Source of the DNA: Desulfuromonadales bacterium
GTDB taxonomy: Bacteria; Desulfobacterota; Desulfuromonadia; Desulfuromonadales; JACZKF01
Length of the DNA stretch: 64,000 nt
Reading direction: 5' to 3'
NCBI GenBank assembly: GCA_029289095.1
Contig: JARFUG010000004.1
Coordinates: forward strand, 13,250 to 77,249
The notes under the pieces are model-generated. The model was not told the DNA's origin. It made no database searches and saw only the letters and a list, made by a program, of their open reading frames with translations. Every line of letters begins with the position of its first letter. Within the stretch, counting starts at the first letter, position 1. This document shows positions 2,917-26,629 of this stretch, in pieces. A program made the position numbers and the translations under genes.

Positions 2917-2933
2917 TTAGGACTCCTTTTTAT

Positions 2934-3008: not shown

Positions 3009-6482
<3,474 letters not shown>

Positions 6483-7286: not shown

Positions 7287-7353
7287 GAAGGAACCTCCCG
7301 TGGATGGACGCTCCTTTATACTCTCGTACAATGGTTGAGGGCAAGAAGGGATA

Positions 7354-7420
7354 ATAGCAATTTTGAATGTTGAATGTTGAATTTTGAATTAAGGCGCCTG
7401 GCTCATGACTCCTGGCAAGT
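7354..7420. repeat. Heptamer tract (TTGAATN type, then GGCNCCT type)
   Basis: agcaattttgaatgttgaatgttgaattttgaatt followed by ggcgcct ggctcat gactcct ggcaagt. It shares a 21-nt exact block (ttgaatgttgaattttgaatt) with 43429..43527. Confidence 0.75.
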
Positions 7421-7504
7421 CGTCCGGGTTCGAGCTCGGTTTCAGGGGCGGCGGCGACCAAAAGGCCTGCTGCGCTTGCTCCATTTACCAGGCGGCAAAA
7501 TTTC

Positions 7505-11073: not shown

Positions 11074-11222
11074 TGCTTCTCCTTTTCCTTTCATCCAGTA
11101 GTGGATAGAAAAATCTCCTTTCCCCAGGGAGGCTCGACCGTTTCCCGTCGAACCCGGTGGCCGGGCGCCATGAGAGATGATCTCTTTTAGGCGCTCAGGC
11201 TCGGAGATGTGAACATGTCCTT

Positions 11223-12659: not shown

Positions 12660-13552
12660 CCCTGCGTCTCCGGGAGAAGGCCTTCGGCCTTGATGATCCT
12701 GAAAAGCCCGTCTGCGACGTCTTCAACCGAACCGGTGTGCATCTTCCCTTCCCGGGCCTTGATGCCGCCGGAGAGAAGCGCCAGAATCCGTTCATAGGCG
12801 GGAAGATTCGCATCCGGGGTCGTCACCCGCAGCGGGTTCGGACGGGGCAAGCCGTACTCGGCCTCTTGAAGCAAAGCCCCTGTTCCCCCGAGCTCCCAGA
12901 AGGGAAGACCGAGTTCCGGTAGCCCCCACGACTCCACCTTTCCCTCGACAGAGCGCATGAGCGCATCCTGACTTGGATAGCGAGGATCGCGAAGACCGTC
13001 CTCGAAGAAGACCGCGCAGGGGATTGAAGTCGCGACCTTGAGCCGGGCGCCCTTGTCTCCCTTGCGCAAAATCTCGAGTCCCCCCTCGAAACGGGCGAGG
13101 GAAAGGGCCGCCGTCACGTAGGGGATCCCTCTGGCGGCCGCAGCGACGGCAGGAGCGGGGTCGCTGCCCCGGTCGAGGAGGCGATTGCCGCAGAAGAAGA
13201 GATCGGGCTTGAGGATTTCGATCGCCCGGGAGAGGACCCTGGCCTCGGCCACCGCGTCGCCCCCCTTCAGACCCCCGTCCCAGATGCGGATGACACGGTC
13301 CGCCCCCATCGACAGGGCGAGGCGCAGGGAATCGTCGAGACGCTTCGGACCCACCGCCACGACCGTCACCTGAGCGCTCCCCGCATCGCGGAAGCCAAGC
13401 GCCTGCTCCAGCGCGCCGAGGTCCGCAGGGTTGGGGATCCGCCGCACCTCCTTGTCGCGAATTCCCGCACCCTTTTCCATCAGACGCACGGGGGTGCGGG
13501 GGTCGCAGACTTCACGGAGCAGGACGAGTATGTTGAGTTTGGAATTGGACAT
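12656..13552 (-). CDS. fixA: Electron transfer flavoprotein beta subunit (FixA/EtfB)
   Basis: ATG at 13552 (MSNSKLNILVLLREV). NPADLGALEQALGFRD and VTVVAVGP match EtfB blocks. About 298 aa, longer than typical EtfB. Overlaps mftF by 4 nt. Confidence 0.85.
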   Translation of the reverse strand: MSNSKLNILVLLREVCDPRTPVRLMEKGAGIRDKEVRRIPNPADLGALEQALGFRDAGSAQVTVVAVGPKRLDDSLRLALSMGADRVIRIWDGGLKGGDAVAEARVLSRAIEILKPDLFFCGNRLLDRGSDPAPAVAAAARGIPYVTAALSLARFEGGLEILRKGDKGARLKVATSIPCAVFFEDGLRDPRYPSQDALMRSVEGKVESWGLPELGLPFWELGGTGALLQEAEYGLPRPNPLRVTTPDANLPAYERILALLSGGIKAREGKMHTGSVEDVADGLFRIIKAEGLLPETQG

Positions 13553-13574
13553 AATAAACCTCAAAATTGCTTTC

Positions 13575-13865
13575 TCAGGTCATCCTGAACGACACCCCGA
13601 ACCCCCCCCGGGGATAGCGCCAGAGCTTGAACGCTCCCGGGCGGCAGACGACATAGCAGGTGCCGCATTCGAGGCAGCCGTCGTACACGAAGGTCATCTT
13701 CTTCTCCTCCTCCGACCAGGTGTAGCAGCGCGCCGGGCAGGAGTTGGTGCAGGCCCGCTGGTCGCAGCGGACGCAGATCGCGGGGTCGAGAACGATGTGC
13801 GCCTCGCGATCGATGTTGAAGCTGGTATAGTCGAAAATTTCGTCGATATTCATAGCGATCTCCAT
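13575..13865 (-). CDS. fixX: FixX ferredoxin-like protein
   Basis: 96 aa. CVRCDQRACTNSCPA...YDGCLECGTCYVVC...WRYPRGGFGVSFR matches the FixX pattern. An alternative ATG at 13853 forms an ATGA overlap with the fixC stop. Confidence 0.85.
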   Translation of the reverse strand: MEIAMNIDEIFDYTSFNIDREAHIVLDPAICVRCDQRACTNSCPARCYTWSEEEKKMTFVYDGCLECGTCYVVCRPGAFKLWRYPRGGFGVSFRMT

Positions 13866-15148
13866 CCCGAGTAGACGTCGGCCAGCGCGTTCTTGAGCCC
13901 GACCTTTTCTTTGACGGCGCGCATCAGCAGTTGGGTCATCGTGCTTTTGGGGTTGCCGTCGATGCGGTAGATCTCGTCCATGATGCCGCAGACCAGTTCT
14001 GGATAGCTGGTGTAGATGCGATCGTTATGGAGCATGTGCGGTGCGCGCTTGTAGAGCTTGAGATCCTTCAGGACGAAGCTCTCCTCCAGCATCCGCCGGT
14101 AGATCGAGAGTCCCGATTTGGTGAAGTCGCGGCTGTTGTGAGCCTCCAGCGCCGCCTTGCCGGCAAGGACCCCCGACTGGGCCGCCAGGTTGATCCCCTC
14201 CAGGTTGAGCCCGGTGACGATGCACATGGCCGCGGCGTCGCCCGCTACCATGATTCCGTCGCCGACGAGTTCGGGCATCATCTCGTATCCCCCCTCCGGG
14301 ACGAGATGCGCGGAGTATTCCAGAAGCCGCCCCCCCCTGAGGAGTTTGGCCATCTGAGGCTGGGCCATGAAACGGTTGAGCAGGTCGTAGGGGGTTTTGC
14401 CGCTATCGGCGAGGCTCCCCAGATGCAGGACGAGGCCGAGAGAGAGGGCGTCGTAGTTGGTGTAGAGAAAGGCGCCGCCTCGAACCCCTTCGGTGCAGCC
14501 GACGATTTCTGTGGAGGCCCCCTGGTCGCGCACCAGTCCGAAGCGCTCGTCGATCGTCTCTTTGGGCATCTCGATCAAGGCCTTGACTCCGATCGCCATG
14601 TGTGAACGATCGAATTTGGGACGACGGAGGCCCGCCTTCTCGGCGGTGAGGGAAAGAACGCCGTCGGCGGCGATCACAATCGGGGCCTTGAGCGCTCCGC
14701 CGTCGCGAAGGGTCGTCACGCCGGTGATCTTCCCCCCTTCCCGGATGACGTCGTCGACGGTGGTGCGGGTGATGAGGGTCGCACCGGCTTTCTGCGCCTC
14801 TTCGGCGAGCCAGCGGTCGAACCTTGGGCGATGGACGGTGTAGCCGTTGTAGGGGGTGCGGTCGCTCGCCTGGGTGTCGAAGTTGACGTTGAAGGTCGCC
14901 TCACCGGTCATGAAGGTCAGCCCCTTCTTGACGATGTGACGCTCCAGGGGGGCCTGATCCCAGAAATCGGGGAAGAACTCTTCAAGCGCCGTCAGGCGGT
15001 GAAGAACTCCTCCGAACATGTTCTTTTCGCCCGGGAAGGCGCCCCTCTCGAGGAGGGCGACGTCGAGCCCGGCCTTGGCCATGGTCAGCGCCGCCGAGGA
15101 GCCGGCCGGACCGGCGCCGACGACGATGGCGTCAAAGTTTTTCTTCAT
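13850..15148 (-). CDS. fixC: FixC, FAD-dependent ETF:quinone-oxidoreductase-like flavoprotein
   Basis: 432 aa. FDAIVVGAGPAGSSAA dinucleotide fold with overall FixC/ETF-QO-like layout. Overlaps fixB by 4 nt. Confidence 0.9.
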   Translation of the reverse strand: MKKNFDAIVVGAGPAGSSAALTMAKAGLDVALLERGAFPGEKNMFGGVLHRLTALEEFFPDFWDQAPLERHIVKKGLTFMTGEATFNVNFDTQASDRTPYNGYTVHRPRFDRWLAEEAQKAGATLITRTTVDDVIREGGKITGVTTLRDGGALKAPIVIAADGVLSLTAEKAGLRRPKFDRSHMAIGVKALIEMPKETIDERFGLVRDQGASTEIVGCTEGVRGGAFLYTNYDALSLGLVLHLGSLADSGKTPYDLLNRFMAQPQMAKLLRGGRLLEYSAHLVPEGGYEMMPELVGDGIMVAGDAAAMCIVTGLNLEGINLAAQSGVLAGKAALEAHNSRDFTKSGLSIYRRMLEESFVLKDLKLYKRAPHMLHNDRIYTSYPELVCGIMDEIYRIDGNPKSTMTQLLMRAVKEKVGLKNALADVYSGWRSL

Positions 15149-16161
15149 GCGGCACCTCCCATGACCGACTTGACCCGCTTGAGCAGCAGCGGCAGGACTT
15201 CACTGACATCGGCCACGAACCCCTCGTCCGCATTGGGGAAGATCGGAACCTTGGGATCGATGTTCACCGCGACGATCTTCTTCGAATCCTTGATCCCCCC
15301 CAGATGATGCATCGAGCCGGAGATCCCGAGGGCGAGGTAAAAGCGCGGGGCAACCGAGCGGCCGGTCTGTCCGACCATCCGCTCGAAACCGGTCCAGCCG
15401 AGGTCGTACACCGGGCGGGTCACGCCCAGAGAGACGTTGAGAAGGCGGGCCAGTTCCTGGAGTTGTTCAAAAGATTGACGATTGCATCCGAGACCCGCGG
15501 CGAAGATGACTTCGGCCTCGGAGACATCCACCGTCTGGGGATCGGGGGGGATGCGTTCGACGATGCGGGTCGGGGCAGCGCCGGGAAGAACCTCGGGACT
15601 CCAGACGCTCACTACGGGCTCTCTGCGGTGCATCGACGGAAGAACGACAGCGCTGATCACCCTTGTATCCATCGTCAGGACCAGGGGGACGCTCCCATCC
15701 CACACCCTGGCCTCGGCGACCTGCCGGCCAAGGGCCGGACGCCGGATCTTGAGCCCCTCTTCCCATCGCTCGAATGCGATCGCTTCGGTCACGATCCCCC
15801 CTTGAATCTCGGCGGCGACCAGCGGAGCCAGGGCGGCCCCGAGGTCGTTGTGAGGAAGAAGGAGGACCTTGGCGCCAAGATCGCGAACCGCCGCGGCCAA
15901 GAGCTTCCCCTGGACCTCGAGGAAATCGGCGACATCGCTTTCGATCACCGTCACGGCAGAGGCGCCGTAGGGGGCGAACTCCGAAAAAATCAGGTCGGCA
16001 GCGTCGCCGAAGCAGATCGCTCCCCATCCTCTCTGCAGCGCCCCGGCAAGGCGGGAGGCCTCGGAGAGGATCCCTTTGCCGGCATCGTCGAGTCCGCCTT
16101 CCGGCAGATCGACAAACGCAAGGATGGTAGGGTGCGTCTCGGGAGAAATCGTCGCGGGCAT
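15145..16161 (-). CDS. fixB: Electron transfer flavoprotein alpha subunit (FixB/EtfA)
   Basis: 338 aa. C-terminal FAD block RFYLALGISGSMHHLGGIKDSKKIVAVNIDPKVPIF is diagnostic for EtfA. Start overlaps the OYE gene stop by 1 nt. Confidence 0.9.
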   Translation of the reverse strand: MPATISPETHPTILAFVDLPEGGLDDAGKGILSEASRLAGALQRGWGAICFGDAADLIFSEFAPYGASAVTVIESDVADFLEVQGKLLAAAVRDLGAKVLLLPHNDLGAALAPLVAAEIQGGIVTEAIAFERWEEGLKIRRPALGRQVAEARVWDGSVPLVLTMDTRVISAVVLPSMHRREPVVSVWSPEVLPGAAPTRIVERIPPDPQTVDVSEAEVIFAAGLGCNRQSFEQLQELARLLNVSLGVTRPVYDLGWTGFERMVGQTGRSVAPRFYLALGISGSMHHLGGIKDSKKIVAVNIDPKVPIFPNADEGFVADVSEVLPLLLKRVKSVMGGAA

Positions 16162-18122
16162 CAGATCTCCCTCCCTACCCGATGCCCTTCCCAGATGGCC
16201 ATGTCGACCTTGCGGGGGGCAACCGAGTCGCCGATGCGGTAGAGCTCCTTGACCTTCCCTTTCAGCTCCTTATAGAGGGCCTCCTCCACCCTCTGCCCCA
16301 TGGCCAGGACGATGGAATCGAAGGGTCCCCACTCCTCCCAGACGTTGGAGTAGACGTTGAATCCCTTGACGGTCTTTGCGCCGGTCTCGCCGCCGATCTC
16401 CATCACTGCGATGTCGGGAGTGAACGTCGTCCCCTTCTGCAGGAGGCGCTGACGGGTCAGGTAAAGGTCCTGGGTCGGTCCGAGCTCGGCGCCGATAAAG
16501 AGGCTGGAGGTGATCATGTGCACCGTCTTCCCCTGGTCGGCGAGAAACTCGGCGGTGGCGGTGGCCCTGTGATGGCCGTCGTAGTCGATAAGGCAGACTT
16601 TCTGGCCCAGTTCGGGCTTGCCGTCGAGCACCTGCCAAACGTTGTAGACCGATGGGCCGTCGGCCCCGCCGACCGGGTGCTCCTTGGGGACGCTTCCGGT
16701 GGCGACAATGACGACTTCGGGCTTGTCGGCCAGGACCTGCCCTGCAGTCACCTCGGCCCCGAGCTTCACCCTCACCCCGGCCTTGTCCACCTGCTCCTTC
16801 TCGTTGCGGATGATGACTCCGAACTCGTCGCGGCCGGTCCCCTTCATGGCGGTGCGGACCTGTCCGCCGAGGGTTTCGTTACGGTCGTACAGGGTGACGT
16901 CGTGGCCGCGGCGGCCAGCCATCTTTGCCGCCCACATGCCGGCGGGGCCACCGCCGACGACCGTCACCTTCTTCTTCACGGCCGCCCTCTCCAGCGTCCC
17001 TTCGCCCCACTCCTTCTCCCGTCCGATAGCCGGATTCTGCACGCAGCCAAGTGACTTGTTCATGCCGATGCGGCCGATGCACCCCTGGTTGCAGGCGATG
17101 CAGTAGCGGATATCCTCGAGCCTTCCCTCCTGAGCCTTCTTCGGCAGGAAGGGGTCGCAGATCAGGGCACGACACATGCCGATCATGTCGGCCTGACCGC
17201 CGGCCAGGACCTTCTCGGCCATGACCGGGTCGTTGATACGCCCGGTGCAGAAGACAGGCAGTTTGAGTCTTTCGCGAACGCCGGCCGCCAGGGGAATGGT
17301 GTACCCCAGGGGGGTGTGCATGGAGCCTTCCACCAGGTAAAGGTTGTAGAAGGTGGCGATGGAGAGATCCATAAAGTCGATGAGGCCGCTCGCCTCGAAG
17401 CGAGCACAGATCTCCTGCACCTGGGCCAGGTCGAGACCGCCCGGGATCATCTCGTCGGCGCACATGCGGATGCCGACCGGGAAATCGGCGCCCACCGCTT
17501 TGCGCACCGCGGAGATGAACTTGAGGGGGGCCCGCATCCGGTTCTCCAGGCTCCCGCCGTACTCGTCGCTGCGGAAGTTCGTCAGAGGGGAGAGAAACTG
17601 TCGGGCGAGGCTGGAATGGCCGAACTGCAGCTCAATCCCGTCAAAGCCCCCTTCCCGCACGTGGACGGCGCTGAGGGCGAAATAGCGCGCCACTTCCTCG
17701 ATGTCCTCGTGCTCCATTTCCTTGGGCGTCTCACGGAAGAGGACGTCGGGGATCGGAGAGGGCGCCCAGACGGGAAGCCGCGAGATGGAACCGTCCCCCT
17801 GCTGGCCGTTGTGGTTGAGCTGGGCGAAGATCTTGGCGTCGAACTGGTGGACGTAGTCGGTGACCTTCCTGAAGCCGGGGACCACCTCCGCATGGTAGAC
17901 GTCGATCAGCTTCTCGTAAGCCATGTCCGTGGGGTGGACGGTCAGTTCCTCGGTGATGATGAGGCCGGCGCCCCCCTTGGCCCGCTCTCCCCAGTAGTAC
18001 ATCTGGCGCTCGCTGGGTAGATTCTTCACCGCCAGGTTCGTCAGGTGCGGCTGAAAGGAGATGCGGTTCTTCACCTCGACCGAGCCGAGCTTCAGGGGGG
18101 AGAACAGGTGTTGAAACATCAT
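16161..18122 (-). CDS. FadH/Old-Yellow-Enzyme-family Fe-S flavoprotein (FMN TIM barrel + 4Fe-4S + FAD/NAD(P) domain)
   Basis: 653 aa. OYE N-terminus LFSPLKLGSVEVKNRISFQPH, cluster motif YCIACNQGCIGR...LGCVQNP, then VTVVGGGPAGMWAA Rossmann domain. Same architecture as 2,4-dienoyl-CoA reductase, enoate reductases and trimethylamine dehydrogenase. Confidence 0.9.
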   Translation of the reverse strand: MMFQHLFSPLKLGSVEVKNRISFQPHLTNLAVKNLPSERQMYYWGERAKGGAGLIITEELTVHPTDMAYEKLIDVYHAEVVPGFRKVTDYVHQFDAKIFAQLNHNGQQGDGSISRLPVWAPSPIPDVLFRETPKEMEHEDIEEVARYFALSAVHVREGGFDGIELQFGHSSLARQFLSPLTNFRSDEYGGSLENRMRAPLKFISAVRKAVGADFPVGIRMCADEMIPGGLDLAQVQEICARFEASGLIDFMDLSIATFYNLYLVEGSMHTPLGYTIPLAAGVRERLKLPVFCTGRINDPVMAEKVLAGGQADMIGMCRALICDPFLPKKAQEGRLEDIRYCIACNQGCIGRIGMNKSLGCVQNPAIGREKEWGEGTLERAAVKKKVTVVGGGPAGMWAAKMAGRRGHDVTLYDRNETLGGQVRTAMKGTGRDEFGVIIRNEKEQVDKAGVRVKLGAEVTAGQVLADKPEVVIVATGSVPKEHPVGGADGPSVYNVWQVLDGKPELGQKVCLIDYDGHHRATATAEFLADQGKTVHMITSSLFIGAELGPTQDLYLTRQRLLQKGTTFTPDIAVMEIGGETGAKTVKGFNVYSNVWEEWGPFDSIVLAMGQRVEEALYKELKGKVKELYRIGDSVAPRKVDMAIWEGHRVGREI

Positions 18123-18150
18123 GGCAGAGAATCCTTATTCACAGTGGGTT

Positions 18151-18228
18151 CGTAGGGGCGATCCTTGTGATCGCCCTGGCTTGGGTGATCGCCCGCAGTT
18201 CCGGGCGAACACAAGGTTCGCCCCTACG
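18151..18228. repeat. REP-like nested palindromic element (GTAGGGGCGA ... TCGCCCCTAC)
   Basis: cgtaggggcgatccttgtgatcgccc...gggcgaacacaaggttcgcccctacg. An outer 10-bp stem encloses two internal GGGCGA(N)TCGCCC hairpins. It fills the mftC-OYE intergenic gap. Confidence 0.7.
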
Positions 18229-18236
18229 TCAATGTT

Positions 18237-19271
18237 TCACGCCGCTGCCGCCTTCTCGGCAATGGACGTCACGCACCTCTCCAGACATTCGGGGTCCCCC
18301 CCCTCGATGTCGTTCTTGAGGTGATAGGCCACCGCCGGGCAGCCGCCGTGGCACTGATCGAAGCGCCGGCAGTCCTCGCAGGAATGGATGCGCAATCCGC
18401 GCAGGGAGGCGAAAATTTCCGAATCGTCCCAGATCGCCTGGAAGTCCCTTTCACGCAGAGATCCGGCCTTGAACTGGTCGAGTTGCATGAAGGCACAGGG
18501 GTAGACGTTCCCCGTGGGGCCGACACAGCAGGTCAGCTTGGCGGCTCCGCACAGATTGAGCCCCAGCCCCTGGCGCTCCTGGGCCGTGAGAGAGAAGAAG
18601 CTGTCCCCGGTGCGCACGTCCCCCCGGCTCTCGAGCCAGTTGGAAAAATCGAGGAGCTGCTGAGGCGAAGGGCGCAGGGCTTCCCAGTTGTCGCTGCCGC
18701 GCCCGGAGGGGCGGAAGCGACTGACCCGCAGAGTAACTCCAAGCCTTTCAGCCAGATCGTAGAGGGCCGGAACCTCTGTGGTGTTCTGTGCGGTCAGCAC
18801 CGTGTTGATGCTCGTCGGGATCGGGCTTGCCGCAAGAAGTCGCAGCGCGCGCAGCGCATCGTCATAGGTTCCAGCGCCGCGGATCGCTTCGCAGGTCGCC
18901 TTTTCCGCGCCGTCGAGACTGACCTGAATGGCGACAAGTCGGGTGCGCGAGAGCCTCTCGACCAGACCGGCATCGATGAGCGTCCCGTTGGTCGAGATGC
19001 AGGTCATGATCCCCCGGGCATGGCAGGCATCCAGTATCTCTTCGAAGTCGGTGCGCATGAAGGGCTCCCCGCCGCCGAAATTGATCTGGAACACCCCAAC
19101 CTTGTGCATCTGGTCGACGAGTGAAAGCGCCTCTGCCGTGGAAAGCTCCCCTTCAGCCGGCTCTCCGGAGGAGGAAAGACAGTGCTCGCATCGGAGATTG
19201 CACGCCAGAGTGACTTCCCAGGTCAGGTTCACCGGGGCCCGTAGCCCGGCCTCAACAAATCGGTTGCTCAC
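18237..19271 (-). CDS. mftC: Mycofactocin radical SAM maturase (SPASM domain)
   Basis: 344 aa. VNLTWEVTLACNLRCEHCLSSSG radical-SAM cluster motif. C-terminal Cys-rich SPASM region CGAAKLTCCVGPTGNVYPC...CEDCRRFDQCHGGCPA. Overlaps mftB by 20 nt. Confidence 0.93.
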   Translation of the reverse strand: MSNRFVEAGLRAPVNLTWEVTLACNLRCEHCLSSSGEPAEGELSTAEALSLVDQMHKVGVFQINFGGGEPFMRTDFEEILDACHARGIMTCISTNGTLIDAGLVERLSRTRLVAIQVSLDGAEKATCEAIRGAGTYDDALRALRLLAASPIPTSINTVLTAQNTTEVPALYDLAERLGVTLRVSRFRPSGRGSDNWEALRPSPQQLLDFSNWLESRGDVRTGDSFFSLTAQERQGLGLNLCGAAKLTCCVGPTGNVYPCAFMQLDQFKAGSLRERDFQAIWDDSEIFASLRGLRIHSCEDCRRFDQCHGGCPAVAYHLKNDIEGGDPECLERCVTSIAEKAAAA

Positions 19272-19509
19272 GGAGAAAACCCTTTTCTATAAGTTGCGCC
19301 AGGAAACTGCGCAACGTGTTCTTTTGCCGTTCCGAAAGCCCCTCGGGAAACTCGTCTTTGCGACGGACCGTCCCGAAGAAGTCGGCGGGAAGAAGGCTGC
19401 CGGTTTCGGCGAAGAGAAGGCGCGGCCCCCTGGAATCGTAAAACAGGAGGCCGAACCCTTCTTGCCTCACGCGGCAGGCCGGGTGCAGCTTGATGCCTGC
19501 CGCCGCCAT
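19252..19509 (-). CDS. mftB: Mycofactocin precursor-binding chaperone (PqqD/RRE-like)
   Basis: 85 aa. HPACRVRQEGFGLLFYDSRGPRLLFAET resembles the MftB core. Start is 1 nt after the mftA stop. Confidence 0.85.
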   Translation of the reverse strand: MAAAGIKLHPACRVRQEGFGLLFYDSRGPRLLFAETGSLLPADFFGTVRRKDEFPEGLSERQKNTLRSFLAQLIEKGFLREQPIC

Positions 19510-19510
19510 C

Positions 19511-19627
19511 TCAGTAGACCCCGCAGATGCCGTCGATGGCGAGCTCTTCGATCTGGATTTCTTCCAGGATCTGAGGCTCTTCGTTGCAGGTGTCGCAGGT
19601 CTCGTTGATCTGTCTTTCGTTCTCCAT
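19511..19627 (-). CDS. mftA: Mycofactocin precursor peptide
   Basis: 38 aa from the ATG at 19627 (GGAG 8 nt upstream): MENERQINETCDTCNEEPQILEEIQIEELAIDGICGVY. The C-terminal IDG(I/M)CGVY is the MftA hallmark. Confidence 0.9.
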   Translation of the reverse strand: MENERQINETCDTCNEEPQILEEIQIEELAIDGICGVY

Positions 19628-19690
19628 GTGTATCTCCTTCCGTCTGTTGGTTCGGCCCGTGATCAGGCCCTCTTTGGGGAAGTCAATACT

Positions 19691-19705
19691 GCAACCGCAG
19701 TGCCA
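19691..19705 (-). promoter_or_regulatory. Sigma-54 (-24/-12) promoter of the mftA operon
   Basis: Minus strand reads TTCTTGGCACTGCGGTTGCAGT, an exact TGGCAC-N5-TTGC, about 65 nt upstream of the mftA ATG. Confidence 0.75.
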
Positions 19706-19828
19706 AGAATCAAACATTGATTTATTATGTGTTTTAGACAGTTAGCAGATAAAGAACGGAAGCGATCCGGCAAAGCTTGTGGAGAAATTGGACAATGGCG
19801 AATACTCCATTCACTCTCCCTCCTCCCT

Positions 19829-19868
19829 GCAGTGGGGATTTGTTCTACATGCATGGAGATTCTCCCCA
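19829..19868. promoter_or_regulatory. Candidate enhancer (UAS) motif shared with the alcohol dehydrogenase promoter
   Basis: gCAGTGGGGAtttgttctacatgcATGGAGATTctcccca. Both 9-mers (CAGTGGGGA, ATGGAGATT) recur at 26419..26441. Lies 125-165 bp upstream of the sigma-54 promoter. Confidence 0.35.
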
Positions 19869-19999
19869 GTTTCCATAAACCGATGTTCTGTATTTTCAGG
19901 AAAATTCCTTGCGGCGAAATGGAATAAAAAATGCTATCCCTTCCACAGGCCATTCCCCCTTCAGGCCCGGTCGATGAGCCCTTTGCACGGAGTGCCGGC

Positions 20000-20503
20000 A
20001 TGCACGAAAAGAATTCCCACTGTTCATATTGCGGAACCATGTTCCTCGATTTGGACCGCGGCCGGCGCCATTGCAGGTCGTGCGGCAACATATCCTACGT
20101 GAACCCCCTCCCGGTCGCCGTCGTCATCCTCCCCGTCGCCGAGGGCGTCGTCGTCATTCGCAGGAATACCGAACCGCGCAAAGGGACTCTCACCCTTCCT
20201 GGGGGATACATCGATATCGGGGAAACCTGGCAGGAAGCGGCGCGGCGCGAAGCCCTCGAAGAAACTGGAATAGAGGTAGAGGCCGGCCGGATCATTCTCT
20301 ATGATGTCCAGAACGGGTTCGACGACACTCTGGTCATTTTCGGTCTTGCGCCGAAGCAGTCCGGAGATGTCCTCAAGCCGTTCAGCTCGGAAGAGACGCA
20401 GGAAGTTTTGCTGATCGAAGCGCCGATCGAGCTCGGGTTTCCGATGCACAGCCAAGTGGTGGAACGATATTTTGCGGAAAGGGAGGCTGGCGAGGGGCAC
20501 TAG
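20000..20503 (+). CDS. NUDIX hydrolase with N-terminal zinc-ribbon (NudC-like layout)
   Basis: ATG at 20000 ([12 protein letters not shown]...RHCRSCG gives CxxC-x13-CxxC). Nudix box [24 protein letters not shown]. Divergent from mftA. Confidence 0.8.
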
Positions 20504-20506
20504 ACC

Positions 20507-22414
20507 CTATTCCCCGCAGGCCGGCAGCATCACGGTAAACTCCGACCCCTCGCCGACCCTGCTCTCCAGCCGGATCTCCCCTCCGTGCCGCTTTACGATG
20601 TTGTAGGAGATGGCAAGGCCAAGGCCGACTCCTCTGCCGACTTCCTTGGTCGTGAAGAACGGCTCCCAGATCCGATCGACAATGTTTTGCGCCATGCCGC
20701 ACCCGTCGTCGCGAATGACGATGGAGATCATTCCCTCGTCGATCTTTTTGGACGTCACTTCCACCGTGCCCGGCCCTTCGAAGGCTTGATGAGCGTTTAC
20801 CAGCAGATTCATGCAGACCTGGCGCAGCCCTGAAGGATCCCCCATCACGCCGGGGAGATTTTTCTCCAGGTTTGTCACAACCCTGATTCGCCTGTAGTTC
20901 GACTGGTATCTGACCAACTCGAGAATTTCCAGCAGCACTGCGTTCATGTCGACCTTGACGGCCAGCCCGTCGGACTTGCGCCCGAAGGTGAGCAGATTGC
21001 CGATAATCCCCTTGCAGCGATAGGACTCTCGGACAATGACCTCAAGATAATGGGGAAAGACATCGAGGCGCGGGTCCTCCTTCAGTGCGGATTCATCGCG
21101 AAAACGGCGCAAAAGCGCTTCGGCAAAACCGGCCACGGAGGTTAGGGGGTTGTTGATCTCGTGTGCAATGCCTGTTGCAAGGACGCCGATGCTCGACATC
21201 TTTTCCGTCTGGATCAGGTGCATCTCCTGGAGGCGCTTTTCCGAGACATCCCTGAAAAAGACGAGAGCCCTGTTCTTTTCTCCCAGGGCATCCTTGATGG
21301 GGGTGGCTGTGATATCCACATAACGGGTCTTGTGACCATCGGCGCGCACGACGAGAGAGGAATCGACCCGCTCTCCCCTGAGAGCTCTCTCGACGGGACA
21401 CTCCAGCGGTTTGGAAGCGCACTCCGGATGAAAGATCTCATGGCAGGGATTGCCGGACCGGGTCTCGGCGGGAAAGAGCTGGGGGCTGATGGCGTTGTGA
21501 TGCTGGATCAGGCCGCTGCTGTCGTAGACCGTGATGCCGTCTCCGATCGAATCGAAGATCGTCTGAAGCTCGTTCGTCTTGTTCCGAAGGTCGACTTCGG
21601 CCTGTTTGCGCTGGGTGATGTCCTGCGTCGTGCCGTAGAGCTTCACGACCTTGCCCGCCGTATTGACCGACGGCTCGACGATGGTGTAGACCCATTTCAG
21701 CGTGCCGTCGCCAAACAGGAGACGGTGCTCGATCTCGTAACTCCTGCCGTGCTCGACTCCCATCCGCAGATGGTCGATGACCATCGGGTGGTCCTCAGGG
21801 TGGACCACCCGAGCGAAAGCTTCCTGGGTCGTTTCTTCCGGTTGCAGCCGCATGATGCGCAGCAGTTCTTCAGAAGCCTTCACCTCGCCCGTCGCGGGAT
21901 TGAAGCTCCATGAACCCACATGCGTCATGGCCTGTGCTTTCGCCAGGTTGTACTCGCTCTCGGCCAGCGCCTTTTCAGCCCTGTTTTTCTCGGTGATGTC
22001 GACGAGAACGGCCAGACACTCCTCGCCCGATTCGGTCGCCATCGCCTCGATGCGCACATGCCGGGGACGCTCGGTCGCAAGCTGCAGCCTGCAGGTTTCC
22101 TTACCCTCCGACTGGAAAACGGTTCGAAGATAGTTGCCGAAAAGGAAGCGGTCCCGGTCGGCCACGCAATCCTCGAACCTGCGCCCGATCAGCGATTCGC
22201 GCTCCATCCCGAGAAGGCGGACACCGAAAAGGTTTACCGACTGGATGATCCCCTGCCGATCGATGGTGAAGTAGCCCACGGGGGCAAAATCATACAGCAA
22301 GGCAAATTTGTTGCGTGACGCTTCCAACTCCTGCCGTGAGCGGCGCAATTCTTCAATTTTGGATTCGAGTTCGCGCTGGTGGGCGCGTAGTTCACATTTG
22401 GCCTTGCTCGTCAT
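20507..22414 (-). CDS. Cytoplasmic multi-PAS sensor histidine kinase (NtrB-like HisKA + HATPase)
   Basis: Coiled-coil N-terminus, three PAS-like regions, H-box GIAHEINNPLTS, and N/G boxes (LLVNAHQA, DDGCGM, GVGLGL). ATG at 22414 has GGAG upstream. An alternative GTG at 22438 overlaps the VWA stop. Confidence 0.9.
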   Translation of the reverse strand: MTSKAKCELRAHQRELESKIEELRRSRQELEASRNKFALLYDFAPVGYFTIDRQGIIQSVNLFGVRLLGMERESLIGRRFEDCVADRDRFLFGNYLRTVFQSEGKETCRLQLATERPRHVRIEAMATESGEECLAVLVDITEKNRAEKALAESEYNLAKAQAMTHVGSWSFNPATGEVKASEELLRIMRLQPEETTQEAFARVVHPEDHPMVIDHLRMGVEHGRSYEIEHRLLFGDGTLKWVYTIVEPSVNTAGKVVKLYGTTQDITQRKQAEVDLRNKTNELQTIFDSIGDGITVYDSSGLIQHHNAISPQLFPAETRSGNPCHEIFHPECASKPLECPVERALRGERVDSSLVVRADGHKTRYVDITATPIKDALGEKNRALVFFRDVSEKRLQEMHLIQTEKMSSIGVLATGIAHEINNPLTSVAGFAEALLRRFRDESALKEDPRLDVFPHYLEVIVRESYRCKGIIGNLLTFGRKSDGLAVKVDMNAVLLEILELVRYQSNYRRIRVVTNLEKNLPGVMGDPSGLRQVCMNLLVNAHQAFEGPGTVEVTSKKIDEGMISIVIRDDGCGMAQNIVDRIWEPFFTTKEVGRGVGLGLAISYNIVKRHGGEIRLESRVGEGSEFTVMLPACGE

Positions 22415-22434
22415 GCTCACTCCGCTCCGACCTG

Positions 22435-23823
22435 TCACCAGTGCGTACGCCCTTCAGGATCAAGGGCAGGCGCCGCCCCCCCGCCACCGCGCGTGTAGTA
22501 CTCGCGGTAATCGTATGCCTCTTCTTGTTCAACCTTCTTCACCGATCTCATCGACCGGTGCTCCTCCTCGAGATAGATACTGCGGAAAAGGTCTTCGACA
22601 ATCGCGTTCAGCTCCTCGACACTTTTGACGACTTCCACCCTGTCGCACCAGGCGCCGTAAGTCTCGATCACGCAATCGCCCCTCTTCCACAACGAGCGCT
22701 CTTCAGGCGTCAGCCAGAGCATGTATCCTGCCTTGTCTCTCACCTGTTCAAGCACCCAGTCGTTGGTCTTCCCGTAGTTGTTGCGGGCATCGCCGAGGAA
22801 GATGACTGCCGGTCTGCCGCGCAGGTTCTCGAGATACTTCTCCTTGAATTTCAGCAGGACCTTTCCGTAGTCGCTGTTGTCGTCGAGGTTGACGATCTTT
22901 CCGCCGTCGATCTCCTTCATCATCGCGTTGATCGGGGAGTTGGAGAGCATTTCGGTGATCTCCGCCAGTTCCGCGTTGAAAATGAAGCTCCTTACATCCA
23001 TCATCCGATTGTGCAGCGTGTGCAGCAGAAGGAGCATGAACTTCGAAGCGTGGCTGACGGAGAAGCTCACGTCGCACAGAACGACGAGACGCGGCTTCTG
23101 CTTGCGTTTGCGGCGCAGTTCGAGCAGAAAGGGCACCATGCCGTTGCGGTAGTTCTTCTGAATCGTGCGGATCACGTGGATCTTGCCGCGGTTCTCGCGG
23201 TTCTTAACCCGCCGGATATCCTTCTTCAGACGCAGGAGCATGCGCGTCACCGCATCCTGCATCGCATCGAGTTCCTGCTGGGAGAAGGTGACGTCGCGCT
23301 TCTGCCCGGCGGAATCCTTGAACGCCATGGTGACGGGATTTTGCGGCATCCGCATCGAGGGCCTGGGCGCCTCCATCGCCCCCTGGTAGTCCTTGAGCTT
23401 TATCTCGATTTCCGAGCCATCGAGCTGATCCAGATCCGTTTCCTTGAGGCTCTGAAGATCCTTCAGATCATTGGGGCTCAGGCCGGCATCGACCCCCGCC
23501 AGCGACATGTTGTCGTTGATCATCTCAGGATTGGTGCCGAGCATCTCCCCTTCCATGCTGATGATCGCTTCTTTCAACAAATCGTCTGGATCAATTCCCA
23601 TGCCGGCAGGGGCTGCGCTGAAGAAGCGATTGAACACTTTCTCGAAGATTGGAATGTCATGAACATTTTTCACCAGCGTCAAACGCAGCAGACTGCTCAC
23701 CTGGCCGCGCCCTTCAAGCCCGCCGTAAGCCAGGGCGCAAACGGCATCGAGGCTCTCCCCCGGAGAGACCCGCAGACCTTCCTTTCTCAGTTCAGCCACA
23801 AAACGCGTGATGACGGTTTCCAT
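22435..23823 (-). CDS. VWA domain protein (CoxE-like)
   Basis: 462 aa. N-terminus FVAELRKEGLRVSPGESLDA and C-terminal VWA block LVVLCDVSFSVS are typical of CoxE-type partners of MoxR ATPases. Confidence 0.85.
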   Translation of the reverse strand: METVITRFVAELRKEGLRVSPGESLDAVCALAYGGLEGRGQVSSLLRLTLVKNVHDIPIFEKVFNRFFSAAPAGMGIDPDDLLKEAIISMEGEMLGTNPEMINDNMSLAGVDAGLSPNDLKDLQSLKETDLDQLDGSEIEIKLKDYQGAMEAPRPSMRMPQNPVTMAFKDSAGQKRDVTFSQQELDAMQDAVTRMLLRLKKDIRRVKNRENRGKIHVIRTIQKNYRNGMVPFLLELRRKRKQKPRLVVLCDVSFSVSHASKFMLLLLHTLHNRMMDVRSFIFNAELAEITEMLSNSPINAMMKEIDGGKIVNLDDNSDYGKVLLKFKEKYLENLRGRPAVIFLGDARNNYGKTNDWVLEQVRDKAGYMLWLTPEERSLWKRGDCVIETYGAWCDRVEVVKSVEELNAIVEDLFRSIYLEEEHRSMRSVKKVEQEEAYDYREYYTRGGGGAAPALDPEGRTHW

Positions 23824-23827
23824 GCGA

Positions 23828-24727
23828 CTAACCCAGTTCCGCCGCCGCCAGTTCTGTCACCTGTTTCAGGTCGGCCTGGTGCTTGGAGATCACACCGACG
23901 GTATTGGCGACCACCTCCGGCGTCAGATTCGTCACGTGCAGGATGGAGAGGACCTCTGCCCAGTCGAGGGTTTCCGATACGCTGGGAGGCTTGCGCAGGT
24001 TGAGTTCACGAACCTTGCGAAGAAAGCCGACCATCTGCTGGGCGAGTTCATCGCAAAGGTCGGGGAACCGGGCGCGAACGATCATCACCTCACGCTCCAT
24101 TTCCGGATAATCGATATAGAGATAGAGGCAGCGGCGCCGAAGGGCGTCAGAGATCATTCGAGTCCCATTGCTGGTGAGGATCGCAAGAGGCTTGTTGTTA
24201 GCTTCGAGTACGCCGAGTTCGGGAATCGAGACCTGAAAATCGCTCAGGCACTCCAGGAGCAGCGCCTCGAATTCGTCATCGGAGCGGTCGATTTCGTCGA
24301 TCAGCAGCACGGACCGTTTCTCCGAAAGGAAGCTGCGCAGCACCGGGCGCTGCACCAGAAAATTCTTCGAAAAAAAGAGGCTCTCCTCGCTTGCCAGACG
24401 ATCGACGGCCTCCCGCAGGTCGGAGGCGCCGCAAAGCTGATTGTCTAGCTGCGTACGCAGCATCTGGGTATAGAGAAGCTGCTTGCCGTACTCCCAATCA
24501 TAGAGAGCCTTGCCTTCGTCTATCCCTTCATAGCACTGCAAGCGCACCAGAGGGAAATCCATGACTTGCGAGAGAGTCTTTGCCAGACCAGTTTTGCCGA
24601 CGCCGGGAGGACCCTCGATCAGGATCGGCTTTTCCATCCGCAGTGCCAGGAAAACCGCCGTAGCAATAGCCTCATCGGCAATGTAGCCCCCGGAGCGGAG
24701 AAGTTCTTTGACTTTGTTTTCGGTCAT
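23828..24727 (-). CDS. MoxR-family AAA+ ATPase (CoxD-like)
   Basis: 299 aa. Walker A ILIEGPPGVGKTGLAK, Walker B VLLIDEIDR, MoxR-type length. Confidence 0.9.
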   Translation of the reverse strand: MTENKVKELLRSGGYIADEAIATAVFLALRMEKPILIEGPPGVGKTGLAKTLSQVMDFPLVRLQCYEGIDEGKALYDWEYGKQLLYTQMLRTQLDNQLCGASDLREAVDRLASEESLFFSKNFLVQRPVLRSFLSEKRSVLLIDEIDRSDDEFEALLLECLSDFQVSIPELGVLEANNKPLAILTSNGTRMISDALRRRCLYLYIDYPEMEREVMIVRARFPDLCDELAQQMVGFLRKVRELNLRKPPSVSETLDWAEVLSILHVTNLTPEVVANTVGVISKHQADLKQVTELAAAELG

Positions 24728-24743
24728 ATGAAAACCTCGTGAT

Positions 24744-24822
24744 GGGTGAGGCGTCAGGAGTGAGGAGAAAAACCTTATTGGTGAAGAGAAAAGCTGTCTC
24801 CTTACTTCTCACTCCTCACCCG
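24744..24822. repeat. Heptamer-built hairpin (GAGGAGT type)
   Basis: gggtgaggcgtcaggagtgaggag ... ctccttacttctcactcctcaccc. Contains a 22-nt block identical (reverse orientation) to 30983..31004. Confidence 0.75.
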
Positions 24823-24823
24823 G

Positions 24824-24864
24824 AAAAAAGCTGGCCCCGGAAATGAACAACTCTCCGGGGCCGG
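24824..24864 (-). terminator. Rho-independent terminator of the alcohol dehydrogenase gene
   Basis: Minus strand gccggccccggagagttgttcatttccggggccagctttttt. Stem GGCCCCGG/CCGGGGCC followed by a T-run. Confidence 0.65.
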
Positions 24865-24889
24865 CAATCGTTACCTCACATTACGGTGA

Positions 24890-26095
24890 CTACATGCAGC
24901 CCTTGAAGACGGCGCGCATATTGTCGAAGCCGATGTCCACGGGATTACCTTCGGAGCAGATGTCGGCGGCGGCGAACTTGGCCAGACCGTCGAGGTCCTT
25001 TTCCTGCAGGCCGAGGTCGGCGAATTTGGTGGTGATCCCGAGATCGTCCTTGAGCTCCTGGATCATGTCGATGAACAACTCGCCGGCCTTGATGTCGGAA
25101 ATATTTCGCGTGTCGATTCCGGCGGCGCGGGCCATCATGGCGAAGCGCTCGGGGCACGCCGGCAGATTGAGGCGGCAGACGTCGACCAGGGCGATGGCGT
25201 TGCACAGGCCGTGGGGAGAGTCGTAAAGACCGCCCATGGCGTGGGCCATCGAGTGGACGATGCCGAGACCGGCGCTGTTGAAACTGTAGGCGGCCGCCAT
25301 CTCGGCCCAGACCATCTGCTCGATGGCCTTGTCGTTGTTGCGGTTGCTCGCAGACTGACGCAGGTTGGCGAAGATCTCGGTGATCGCCCAGAGGCCGGGG
25401 CCGTAAGCCGACTGCACGCACAGGCGCGATGCGATCGCTTCGACGGCGTGGGTCAGGGCGTCCATCCCGGTGTAGGCGGCGAGATCGCTCGGCATGCACT
25501 GGTGGAGCAGGGGGTCGTTGACCGACTTGCTCGGTGTGCAATTGGGATCGAAAAGGGCCATCTTGTACATCTTCTCGGTGTGGTTGATGATCGAGAAGCA
25601 CGAAATCTCCGAACCGGTTCCCGAGGTGGTGTTGATGGCGAGTTGGGGGATCTTGTTCTTCTTCGTTGCCTTAAAGGCGCCTTCGAAGGAGCGGACATCC
25701 TGTCCGTCGTGGCTGTAGACGAGCTTGATCGCCTTGGCGCAGTCGGTGGTGCTGCCGCCCCCGATGCTGATGATGCCGTCGAATTTTCCGGAGGCCAGGA
25801 CCTTGGCCCCTTCCATGACTTCATAGTCTTTGGGGTTGGGCGTTGCCTTGTCGAACACCTCGGAAGCCACCCCTGCGTGCTTCAGAACCCCCTGGATCGC
25901 CTCGATAATGCCGGTCCCCTTCAGGCCGGTGGTGACGATCAGGGCATTGGTCATCCCCAGCGCCTTGGCGTCGTTGCCGACCATCGTGTGAGCACCCCAG
26001 CCGATATTGACTGAAGGATAGGCGTGCTGCATCCGGATAGGGTATTCCTGCCTTTCGAGCTTGAGGGTCCGTTTTGCGTCTCTGAAATGTGGCAT
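24890..26095 (-). CDS. Iron-containing (group III) alcohol dehydrogenase
   Basis: 401 aa. GGGSTTDCAKA and metal-binding His blocks (DALTHAVEA, VHSMAHAMGG). Strong RBS GAAGGAGG before the ATG at 26095, giving a ~21-aa N-terminal extension relative to typical family members. Confidence 0.93.
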   Translation of the reverse strand: MPHFRDAKRTLKLERQEYPIRMQHAYPSVNIGWGAHTMVGNDAKALGMTNALIVTTGLKGTGIIEAIQGVLKHAGVASEVFDKATPNPKDYEVMEGAKVLASGKFDGIISIGGGSTTDCAKAIKLVYSHDGQDVRSFEGAFKATKKNKIPQLAINTTSGTGSEISCFSIINHTEKMYKMALFDPNCTPSKSVNDPLLHQCMPSDLAAYTGMDALTHAVEAIASRLCVQSAYGPGLWAITEIFANLRQSASNRNNDKAIEQMVWAEMAAAYSFNSAGLGIVHSMAHAMGGLYDSPHGLCNAIALVDVCRLNLPACPERFAMMARAAGIDTRNISDIKAGELFIDMIQELKDDLGITTKFADLGLQEKDLDGLAKFAAADICSEGNPVDIGFDNMRAVFKGCM

Positions 26096-26284
26096 CTGTA
26101 CTTACCTCCTTCTGTGTGGGTGCTTTGGGTTGGATTGCACTTGCATCGACCATCGGGCGCCAGAACTAGCCTTCGTTTCCGACCACCACCTCCTTGCAAC
26201 AATGTTTTAAGCAGCCCCTTCAGTCGTAGAAGAATGAATTCCTGAAATGACCGCGCCTTTCTTCACATCGTGTCAACGGATAGA

Positions 26285-26299
26285 GCAAGGAGAGTGCCA
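26285..26299 (-). promoter_or_regulatory. Sigma-54 (-24/-12) promoter of the alcohol dehydrogenase gene
   Basis: Minus strand TTCTTGGCACTCTCCTTGCTCT, an exact TGGCAC-N5-TTGC. It shares the 11-nt TTCTTGGCACT with the mftA promoter. About 190 nt upstream of the ATG. Confidence 0.75.
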
Positions 26300-26418
26300 A
26301 GAAAGGAACCTTGGCTATAACGCTATTTTAGGCCATGCGAATGGAGGGACCGCAGGTGGACGGAGGCAGGACGGGGAATTCTGTAACAGTTTTATAAACT
26401 CAAAGCCGTAGAGGAGGT

Positions 26419-26441
26419 ATGGAGATTGTCTACAGTGGGGA
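26419..26441. promoter_or_regulatory. Candidate enhancer (UAS) motif shared with the mftA promoter
   Basis: ATGGAGATTgtctaCAGTGGGGA, 120-140 bp upstream of the sigma-54 promoter. Same two 9-mers as 19829..19868. Confidence 0.35.
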
Positions 26442-26454
26442 ATAAGGAATCAGG

Positions 26455-26628
26455 GCAATTTGAATTTTTGAATTCAGAGATTTGAATTTAAAGGCAAGAA
26501 CCCCCGTCCCGTAGCGCTGCACAGACAAGAGCCGATCGTGGTTGATGGCGCCGAAAGGTTGGATTTCCAGGTGATTTGCTTTTGCTCCAACAATTCAAAT
26601 TTAAAAAATCACAATTCAAAATTGCCTT
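26455..26628. repeat. Pair of inverted TTGAAT-type heptamer tracts flanking a ~95-bp spacer
   Basis: ggcaatttgaatttttgaattcagagatttgaattt (26455-26492) and caattcaaatttaaaaaatcacaattcaaaattgcc (26591-26627) are imperfect reverse complements. They sit just downstream of the ALDH stop. Confidence 0.65.
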
Positions 26629-26629
26629 A

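Follow-up and report, generated by a model that had tools for sequence, protein, structure and literature searches.

The regulation of mycofactocin (mft) genes has been described only for mycobacteria, in which the TetR-family repressor MftR, the sole mft regulator that our searches turned up, represses the mft operon from a 27-bp operator until long-chain acyl-CoAs lift the repression (Mendauletova and Latham 2021, PMC8728441). In this work we analysed the intergenic region 19628..19930 of a stretch of Desulfuromonadales DNA (from here on the window, meaning the whole 64,000 nucleotides), which lies between the ATG of the mycofactocin precursor gene mftA (19627, minus strand) and the ATG of a divergent NUDIX hydrolase gene (19931, plus strand). 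As in the MftR system, the site of control would be a palindromic DNA element immediately upstream of mftA; in contrast, there is no TetR gene here, and the control that we propose is positive, ATP-dependent, based on sigma-54 and shared with the client dehydrogenase. The comparison with related genomes makes it probable that 19628..19930 is a complete enhancer-dependent promoter region, and that one activator serves both the mft operon and a nearby operon of an iron-containing alcohol dehydrogenase (Fe-ADH; the ADH operon) through a shared arrangement of sites. The cofactor and its enzyme would probably be switched on together.

In Geobacter, sigma-54 is an essential global factor with the consensus TTGGCACGGTTTTTGCT (PMC2725144), and the RpoN promoters of G. 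sulfurreducens present the same -24/-12 architecture and the dependence on enhancer-binding proteins that is proposed here (Leang et al. 2009, PMC2725144). When the published consensus is compared with TTGGCACTGCGGTTGCA of the window, every specified core base matches except the G after TGGCAC. Neither G. sulfurreducens nor G. metallireducens has a mycofactocin system (PMC3023750). Hence the RpoN regulon described there does not include the mft genes or this ADH. Promoters that depend on NtrC carry several dyad-symmetric sites upstream of -24/-12, and here likewise several dyad-symmetric 17-bp sites were found 100-190 bp upstream of these elements. The candidate activator described below is like those of the NtrC/AtoC-type systems (AtoS-AtoC, NtrB-NtrC) in its REC, sigma-54 AAA+ and HTH_8 domains, and the kinases have AtoS as their best match; the site, TGTRGA-N5-TCYMCA, is different, and the targets here are the operon of a ribosomally synthesised and post-translationally modified peptide cofactor and an alcohol dehydrogenase. 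In sigma-54 promoters assisted by the integration host factor (IHF), such as Pu, nifH and glnHp2, the IHF element is located between the activator sites and -24/-12. An AT-rich element with a partial match to WATCAANNNNTTR occupies this position in the window, but it directly adjoins -24, has dyad symmetry and recurs in a second copy upstream of the enhancer.

A further parallel is the ErcA-ErcS system of Pseudomonas ethanol oxidation, a process that employs the peptide-derived cofactor pyrroloquinoline quinone (PQQ) (Hempel et al. 2013, as cited in PMC12997753). The common features are the gene of an Fe-ADH-like "regulatory" protein beside a histidine kinase, a pair that governs (here, would govern) the oxidation of alcohols with a peptide-derived redox cofactor (PQQ in one case, mycofactocin in the other). 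The differences are that the Fe-ADH of the relatives scores below the ErcA cut-off of 550, that the kinase is a short soluble PAS protein and not a hybrid one, that the output would be a sigma-54 activator and not a LuxR-type regulator, and that the module is absent from the window.

In full-text literature searches, no paper linking mycofactocin to sigma-54, RpoN or enhancer-binding proteins was found, and the sole co-occurrence of mycofactocin and RpoN was in an unrelated transcriptome paper on M. tuberculosis. What is proposed here is a regulon, defined from sequence, of the variant mycofactocin system in metal-reducing Deltaproteobacteria, together with a named candidate two-component regulator; its proposed members are the genes from mftA to that of an aldehyde:ferredoxin oxidoreductase (AOR), the operon of the NPKDYEV-type Fe-ADH and, in some genomes, AOR genes with separate promoters. 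The role of the Fe-ADH as a client of mycofactocin has so far been based on phylogenetic profiling (PMC3023750), and it now becomes directly testable via co-regulation. In addition, promoter, enhancer and activator would offer a handle for inducing the mycofactocin pathway in culturable Geobacter. Since the mechanism is textbook sigma-54 biology, the advance is incremental: the regulon is new and its kind of mechanism is well known, so that it is useful for mycofactocin and Geobacter physiology and not mechanistically surprising.

The sigma-54 promoter of mftA and its upstream dyads

The promoter sequence TTCTTGGCACTGCGGTTGCAG is located at 19689..19709 on the minus strand, with the -24 element TGGCAC at 19705..19700 and the -12 element TTGC at 19694..19691, and 64 nt separate the C of TTGC from the ATG of mftA. 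A preliminary description of this DNA had placed an exact TGGCAC-N5-TTGC about 65 nt before mftA, and all the strings that it quoted were found where it had put them. The exact motif occurs twice in the window, at 19705..19691 and 26299..26285, against 0.09 matches expected (none of 100 shuffles reached two), and both matches are on the minus strand, upstream of operons and pointing toward the downstream genes. The extended sequence at 19706..19690 fits YTGGCACG-N4-TTGCW, with GG and GC exactly 10 bp apart and the G already mentioned as the sole deviation. From the standard position of this GC at -12/-13, the transcription start is predicted at 19677..19681 (~19679, minus strand), which gives mftA a predicted 5' untranslated region (5'UTR) of ~52 nt with the ribosome-binding site GGAAGGAGA. 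A scan for sigma-70-like promoters found none on the mftA strand and only a weak plus-strand site overlapping the reverse complement of TGGCAC, which is probably meaningless, and an Rfam search of 19400..26700 gave no match.

Relatives were collected by a scan of species-representative genomes for MftC, which yielded 80 loci of Geobacterales/Desulfuromonadales with 72-82% amino-acid identity (individual loci are given below as L numbers). Cultured relatives include Geobacter argillaceus (L040) and Geobacter sp. OR-1 (L025). The mftA gene was located in 75 of them, with usable upstream sequence in 72. TGGCAY-N5-TTGC was present in 69 of these 72 loci, 72-105 nt and mostly 73-87 nt before the ATG, and across the relatives GG and GC are invariant, with a 5-nt spacer and flanks that are free to vary. 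In the three loci without it (L062, L072 and L078) another gene abuts mftA, so the promoter there must lie further upstream. As a matter of sequence, the conservation in 19628..19930 settles the presence of a sigma-54 promoter.

The enhancer unit is a 17-bp dyad, TGTRGA-N5-TCYMCA, of which each mftA promoter has three. Seventy mftA promoters were anchored on the -24 element and dyad positions were counted from the T of TGGCA; in this alignment the conserved blocks are sharp within otherwise unalignable intergenic DNA. All three dyads of the window are on the minus strand. S1, TGGGGAGAATCTCCATG (19852..19868), corresponds to the block at -163 +/-2 (19.8 bits) and has its centre at ~-181 from the predicted start, with a position weight matrix (PWM) score of 10.4; S2, TGTAGAACAAATCCCCA (19833..19849), corresponds to -145 +/-2 (17.7 bits), with its centre at ~-162 and a PWM score of 15.0; and S3, TGTCCAATTTCTCCACA (19778..19794), to -90 +/-2 (21.8 bits), with its centre at ~-107 and a PWM score of 14.3. 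S1 and S2 abut.

The upstream motif of the preliminary description consisted of two 9-mers, which are present and do recur; what had been taken for the motif is made of parts of two abutting dyads, since S1 contains the 9-mer ATGGAGATT and the right half of S2 is the 9-mer CAGTGGGGA, and the third dyad (19794..19778), which is equally conserved, had been missed. As that description had also proposed, the region upstream of the Fe-ADH gene shares both 9-mers and the 11-nt flank of the -24 element: TCCCCACTG at 19838..19830 reappears at 26441..26433, AATCTCCAT at 19861..19853 reappears at 26427..26419, and the 11-mer TTCTTGGCACT recurs at 26303..26293. The chance estimate given with it, ~0.6 for one shared 9-mer, was too optimistic: the two intergenic regions have six 9-mers in common, dinucleotide shuffles share 1.85 on average, and P(>=6) is ~0.04. 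It is the conservation in relatives, and not the shared-9-mer statistic, that validates the motif. In 1.3 Mb of genome loci there are 89 exact sigma-54 sites; 70 are mftA promoters, and 18 of the other 19 carry dyads as well (upstream of ADH, of AOR in several genomes, and of one other gene). Likewise, 189 of 287 PWM matches to the dyad fall within the ~2% of the sequence that lies upstream of mftA or ADH.

The alcohol dehydrogenase promoter and the proposed mechanism

The second sigma-54 promoter, TTCTTGGCACTCTCCTTGC, is located at 26285..26303 on the minus strand; the last C of its TTGC is 190 nt before the ATG of the Fe-ADH gene (26095), and its predicted start is at ~26273. The layout of the ADH promoters is the one found at mftA, namely a pair of abutting distal dyads plus a proximal one. 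In the window, where all of them are on the minus strand, the proximal dyad is TGTTACAGAATTCCCCG (26372..26388, centre ~-107), whose TGT.TC.....TCCCC block is conserved in the ADH alignment. The distal ones are TGTAGACAATCTCCATA (26418..26434, PWM 15.5), which holds the 9-mer AATCTCCAT and shows a conserved TGT.GA.AA..TCC.TA block, and TGATTCCTTATTCCCCA (26436..26452, PWM 10.6), which holds the 9-mer TCCCCACTG together with the next base pairs and shows a conserved AAA.TCCCCA block. The ADH orthologues considered (n=46) have at least 80% identity, come from genome and metagenome loci, and extend at least 320 nt upstream of the gene. An exact sigma-54 consensus was present within 320 nt upstream in 41 of the 46, and dyads in 39 of those 41. 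The footprints in ~70 genome and ~40 metagenome loci bear out the proposal that mftA and the Fe-ADH gene have a sigma-54 promoter and an activator motif in common, and are consistent with their co-regulation by a bacterial enhancer-binding protein (bEBP).

In the predicted 5'UTR of ADH (~178 nt) there is a conserved TAAAAC-N3-GTTAT and, after it, a strong Shine-Dalgarno-like AGGAGGTGAT, ~95-125 nt after the promoter. This element is found at ~26184..26209 (minus strand) in the window and also in the ADH leaders of L006-L133, and a GC-rich hairpin region of variable sequence follows it; it could act as a regulatory part of the leader or as a site for a protein.

In some relatives, the AOR gene has its own dyad enhancer: L036 (~8510), L039 (~8518), L069 (~19116) and L079 (~18495), where an exact sigma-54 consensus is also present, and L041 (~12714-12748) and L053 (~18197), which show dyads only. 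The AOR gene of the window has no dyad enhancer of its own and is presumably read through from mftA. In L082, a further sigma-54 promoter (~3885, minus strand) points away from the operon of the ErcA-like gene and regulator; beyond it, at 2390-3664 (minus strand), there is a 424-aa open reading frame (ORF) without Pfam or NCBIfam match, which would be an uncharacterised member of the regulon. A similar outward promoter was observed in L084, L085, L101, L109, L112, L119 and L133, and most of these loci, L082 included, have dyads.

Starting from the sequences themselves, how they are conserved, the fixed spacing of the sites and the neighbouring genes, we infer the following course of events; the binding steps, the position of the transcription start, the activator that acts and the signal that it answers to are all predictions. 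Sigma-54 RNA polymerase would bind TGGCAC-N5-TTGC (19705..19691) and form a closed complex. A phosphorylated response regulator of the NtrC/AtoC type would bind S1-S3 as dimers (~-107, -162 and -181), assemble into an ATPase ring, loop the DNA to the polymerase and open the promoter using ATP; bending of the AT-rich AAAY-N4-GTTT block beside -24 would probably assist the looping. The same activator would act at the ADH promoter (26285..26452) and, in some genomes, at AOR promoters. Given that the arrangement is repeated before the Fe-ADH operon, one activator would switch on mftABC, the redox partners, mftF and AOR as well as the enzyme that uses the cofactor, so that cofactor, client dehydrogenase and aldehyde-handling enzyme would rise together. 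The activator gene of this genome would lie outside the window.

The AT-rich element and the candidate activator

The preliminary description had interpreted the AT-rich sequence beside -24 as an IHF site. It is a near-palindrome, ATAATAAATCAATGTTTGATT (19708..19728, minus strand; core AAATCAATGTTT, 19723..19712), that abuts -24, and its 13-mer at 19708..19720 has one mismatch to WATCAANNNNTTR on either strand. An AAAYC-N2-TGTTT block at -20 from TGGCA is kept in the mftA, ADH and AOR promoters. Support for the interpretation as IHF site is partial: what is conserved in this IHF-like block is a dyad-symmetric AAAY-N4-GTTT element with a second copy upstream of the enhancer, and not an asymmetric single site. 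This copy, GAACATCGGTTT (19877..19888, minus strand), of the AAAC-N4-GTTT type, is placed just upstream of S1 and 43 nt before the NUDIX ATG; in 92 promoters of the TTGCA class the second copy shows a peak at -185 from TGGCA, and a related AAAC-N3-GTT occurs at ~+90 in the ADH leader. IHF may occupy this element, but the likelihood of a second dimeric factor is no smaller.

That the block is a genuine IHF site, which would bend the DNA so that the activator at -107 to -181 touches the polymerase, is a possibility that we consider with some doubt. The match improves to a perfect one in some relatives (e.g. L010), and the IHF consensus with at most one mismatch is found within -75..-1 in 58 of 127 non-redundant regulon promoters, compared with ~9% of shuffles, clustering at -16 to -21 from TGGCA; the placement between enhancer and promoter is also that of the classical IHF-assisted sigma-54 promoters. 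However, the conserved bases differ from those that IHF specifies: the best-conserved ones, TGTT, fall in its unspecified N4, and ATCAA is often ATCGN or ACCAA in the relatives. Furthermore, the block is unusually near -24, and its dyad symmetry is unexpected for an asymmetric IHF site, as is its recurrence (a copy precedes S1, and the ADH 5'UTR has a related one). Another reading is a second dimeric regulator, for example a repressor that binds AAAY-N4-GTTT at both ends of the enhancer and acts by a repression loop or by occlusion of -24, as a second input. The two dyad-symmetric copies are fixed in position (-20 and -185 from TGGCA, ~165 bp apart), the related AAAC-N3-GTT is at +90 in the ADH leader, and, among the loci examined, four sigma-54 sites clearly outside the regulon have no such block. 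Nevertheless, no candidate protein was found, the control promoters number only four, and common descent of the promoters or a requirement for AT-rich bending could yield an equal pattern; we judge this reading to be rather unlikely.

With respect to the activator, the preliminary description had noted that there is no bEBP gene in the window, and neither a GAFTGA scan of all six frames nor tblastn searches with two bEBP sequences found one. As the GAFTGA pattern misses GAFTSA variants (e.g. in L030), tblastn was used in its place. In the relatives, bEBP genes within 10 kb of mftA are rare and inconsistent. Upstream of the ADH operon, on the other hand, an orthologous bEBP gene is present in L014, L015 (C-terminus only), L030 and L069, with 71-74% identity to the L014 protein, and in each of the 16 metagenome loci whose sequence extends at least 4.6 kb beyond the start of ADH, with 72-85% identity to the same protein and in the same orientation. 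It is preceded by the gene of a 402-aa PAS-HisKA-HATPase kinase, which in 15 of the 16 metagenome loci is preceded in turn by a paralogous Fe-ADH gene; a radical-SAM/SPASM gene, whose product is 26-28% identical to MftC, is often found between this regulator module and ADH. In L082 the ErcA-like Fe-ADH, the 402-aa PAS kinase and the 457-aa AtoC-like sigma-54 activator occupy 4273-8008 (the activator itself 6635-8008), with equivalents in L084-L133, L014, L030 and L069.

The candidate bEBP has REC, Sigma54_activat, AAA_lid and HTH_8 domains, and its best NCBIfam match is AtoC, with 429 bits against an equivalog cut-off of 714; a score so far below the cut-off indicates that it is not AtoC and is AtoC-like in architecture only. 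Both kinases have AtoS as best NCBIfam match, and the paralogous Fe-ADH has ErcA ("alcohol dehydrogenase-like regulatory protein ErcA"), with 426 bits against a cut-off of 550 (next family, 278). Dyads are also present beside the activator's own operon. In a distant ADH clade (~70% identity; L113-L118, L121 and L122) the adjacent bEBP is only ~40% identical and the TGTRGA dyads are absent, while sigma-54-like promoters, YGGYACG-N4-TTGCT, are kept 230-355 nt upstream. The loss of the dyads alongside a distant bEBP is the covariation expected if the AtoC-like bEBP reads the dyads. The leaders of this distant clade share a conserved GGAAGGAGGTGAT.

On these gene neighbourhoods, the AtoC-like activator upstream of the ADH operon in relatives is the best candidate for the regulator. 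The preliminary description had suggested checking whether an NtrC-family bEBP pairs with the PAS kinase encoded at 20507 in the window; an NtrC-type bEBP was indeed found in the relatives, but adjoining a second, shorter PAS kinase, and this one would most likely be its partner, not necessarily the kinase with three PAS domains (3xPAS) at 20507..22438. In the relatives, the genes between the kinase and the NUDIX gene are variable cargo (toxin-antitoxin-like, LysR and transporter genes) and include no response regulator. The pairing of an ErcA-like ADH with a PAS kinase, for which ErcA-ErcS is the precedent, suggests that the signal is likely an alcohol, an aldehyde or a linked redox state. 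In G. pickeringii, methanol-utilisation genes adjoin the mft cluster (PMC4358379). We tentatively propose that in anaerobic Geobacterales a dedicated circuit of ErcA-like ADH, PAS kinase and sigma-54 activator co-induces variant mycofactocin, its client ADH and AOR, with a second dimeric protein at AAAY-N4-GTTT gating the loop; in the same speculative spirit, this alcohol/aldehyde circuit might be a convergent counterpart of the ErcA/ErcS control of PQQ-dependent ethanol oxidation in Pseudomonas.

Several observations weigh against the proposed control by one activator at both promoters. At the level of the sites, S1 of the window (10.4 bits) is at the weak end of the PWM range, as is the ADH dyad at 26436..26452 (10.6 bits), of which the right half alone is good, and the distal pair of ADH dyads is ~13 bp nearer the promoter in the window than in the relatives. 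As for the proteins, besides lacking a bEBP gene, the 64-kb window has neither rpoN nor ihf genes; it has no ErcA-like/kinase/bEBP module where all the sampled relatives have one, and an aldehyde dehydrogenase (AldDH) gene and lpxA are found there. Moreover, the link between activator and dyads is one of gene neighbourhood and covariation only. Regarding transcripts, the RNA run X21 of the same study, from a sample in which the locus occurs, had no contig on the locus, and two further runs of that study, X22 (also from a sample with the locus) and X23, had no indexed words in common with it. The metatranscriptomes X8, X19 and X20, searched at 80% likeness, cover only coding parts of mftA, mftB and mftC of diverged relatives, and none of the three gives a 5' end of the mftA transcript.

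Between the AldDH stop and the ADH enhancer the window carries a 173-bp element (26454..26626) that abuts the enhancer and has imperfect inverted ends of 35 nt (26454-26488 and 26592-26626), which are rich in AATTCAAA. It sits exactly where relatives carry the regulator module, and may be an insertion resembling a miniature inverted-repeat transposable element or the scar of a rearrangement. When the source metagenome X1 was compared with L082, contigs of 9.9 kb and 338 nt, of fitting depth (~27-30x), touched the ErcA-like and bEBP regions, where conserved domains of many organisms pile up; as a copy of this organism's regulator module they are only suggestive.

It could also be that the promoter depends on sigma-54 and that its activator is another bEBP, for example an AcoR-type activator with a GAF domain or a regulator phosphorylated by the 3xPAS kinase. 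The absence of the module from the window would fit this, as would the conservation of the 3xPAS kinase in the ADH operon with no adjacent response regulator, and the case of L010, where another kinase-bEBP pair sits between the ADH cluster and the NUDIX gene. AcoR-like genes within 10 kb of the mft cluster were found in L020, L030 and L055, that is, in only 3 of the 80 loci and at inconsistent positions, and for this inconsistency they were set aside; the AtoC-like gene, in contrast, occurs in every one of the 16 informative loci, always oriented alike and with dyads beside its own operon, so that another bEBP appears improbable. Finally, it is scarcely credible that the conserved blocks are non-regulatory (a longer MftA leader, a small upstream ORF or chance): the mftA frame is open through the promoter in some loci, with TGG CAC reading Trp-His, but many loci have stop codons between promoter and ATG, a coding explanation is ruled out by the free 5-nt spacer between invariant GG and GC and by a distance to the ATG that ranges over 76-109 nt (measured from 4 nt before TGG) and takes each of the three phases, and the same blocks precede ADH and AOR genes, with a chance expectation of 0.09 per window.

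Gene content of the locus and transcripts of its relatives

The first gene of the operon that this promoter would drive is mftA (19511..19627, minus strand), which encodes a 38-aa mycofactocin precursor, MENERQINETCDTCNEEPQILEEIQIEELAIDGICGVY, with the C-terminus IDGICGVY. The product matches Pfam MftA and NCBIfam TIGR03969/NF040489 (variant-type mycofactocin precursor), both above cut-off. According to Pfam, NCBIfam and the gene order kept in relatives, the remainder of the presumed mft operon (9337..19509, minus strand) comprises mftB, mftC, a FadH/OYE oxidoreductase gene ("mycofactocin system FadH/OYE oxidoreductase 2", TIGR03997, 986 bits), the genes of electron-transfer flavoprotein (ETF) alpha, an ETF-QO-like protein and ETF beta, mftF, and the AOR gene. 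An MftA ending in GVY, MftB (TIGR03967) and MftC (TIGR03962) are all present above their cut-offs, and so is MftF (TIGR03965). MftD- or MftE-type domains were absent among the ORFs scanned, which did not cover all small or unlisted ORFs, and this fits the "variant" type of mft cluster, to which we assign 9337..19627 (minus strand); its AOR is of the tungsten type. No further sigma-54 consensus was found inside 9337..19509.

The ADH operon (20507..26095, minus strand) is located ~6.5 kb upstream of mftA on the same strand and was delimited with Pfam, NCBIfam and conserved synteny. It contains the genes of the Fe-ADH with its NPKDYEV motif (26095..24890), a MadB-like AAA ATPase (24727..23828), a MadC-like VWA protein (23823..22435) and the 3xPAS histidine kinase (22438..20507), all of them on the minus strand. 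A TSNPKDYEVH loop was singled out by Haft in the mycofactocin-linked Fe-ADHs of Geobacter and Desulfotomaculum (PMC3023750). The Fe-ADH of the window contains the peptide NPKDYEVM, found with a pattern taken from the query itself.

The NUDIX hydrolase gene (19931..20503, plus strand; Pfam NUDIX) is divergent from mftA, shares with it the intergenic region that holds the enhancer, and is syntenic in most loci. With S1 ending a mere 63 nt from this ATG, the NUDIX gene may come under the influence of the activator as well. A NUDIX partner for a nicotinoprotein-type Fe-ADH recalls Act, the activator of the methanol dehydrogenase of Bacillus methanolicus. The protein has an N-terminal zinc-ribbon-like segment, and its best NCBIfam match, NAD(+) diphosphatase, is below cut-off.

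The metatranscriptomes X8, X19 and X20, mentioned before, come from sediment, mangrove and soil; their contigs are 80-95% like mftA, mftB and mftC (window 18200..19660), and depth is highest over mftB (19415..19495) and the adjoining mftA. Their presence indicates that relatives of the mft operon are expressed in nature.

The remaining large ORFs of the window correspond to housekeeping genes only in Pfam scans. A second radical-SAM/SPASM protein, of 447 aa, is encoded at 51394..52737 (minus strand), in a position unrelated to the mft cluster. Lastly, one contig of the source metagenome X1 (5x, compared with ~28x) skips 398 bases within the AOR gene, at 10180..10579 of the window, and represents a minor deletion variant in the population.

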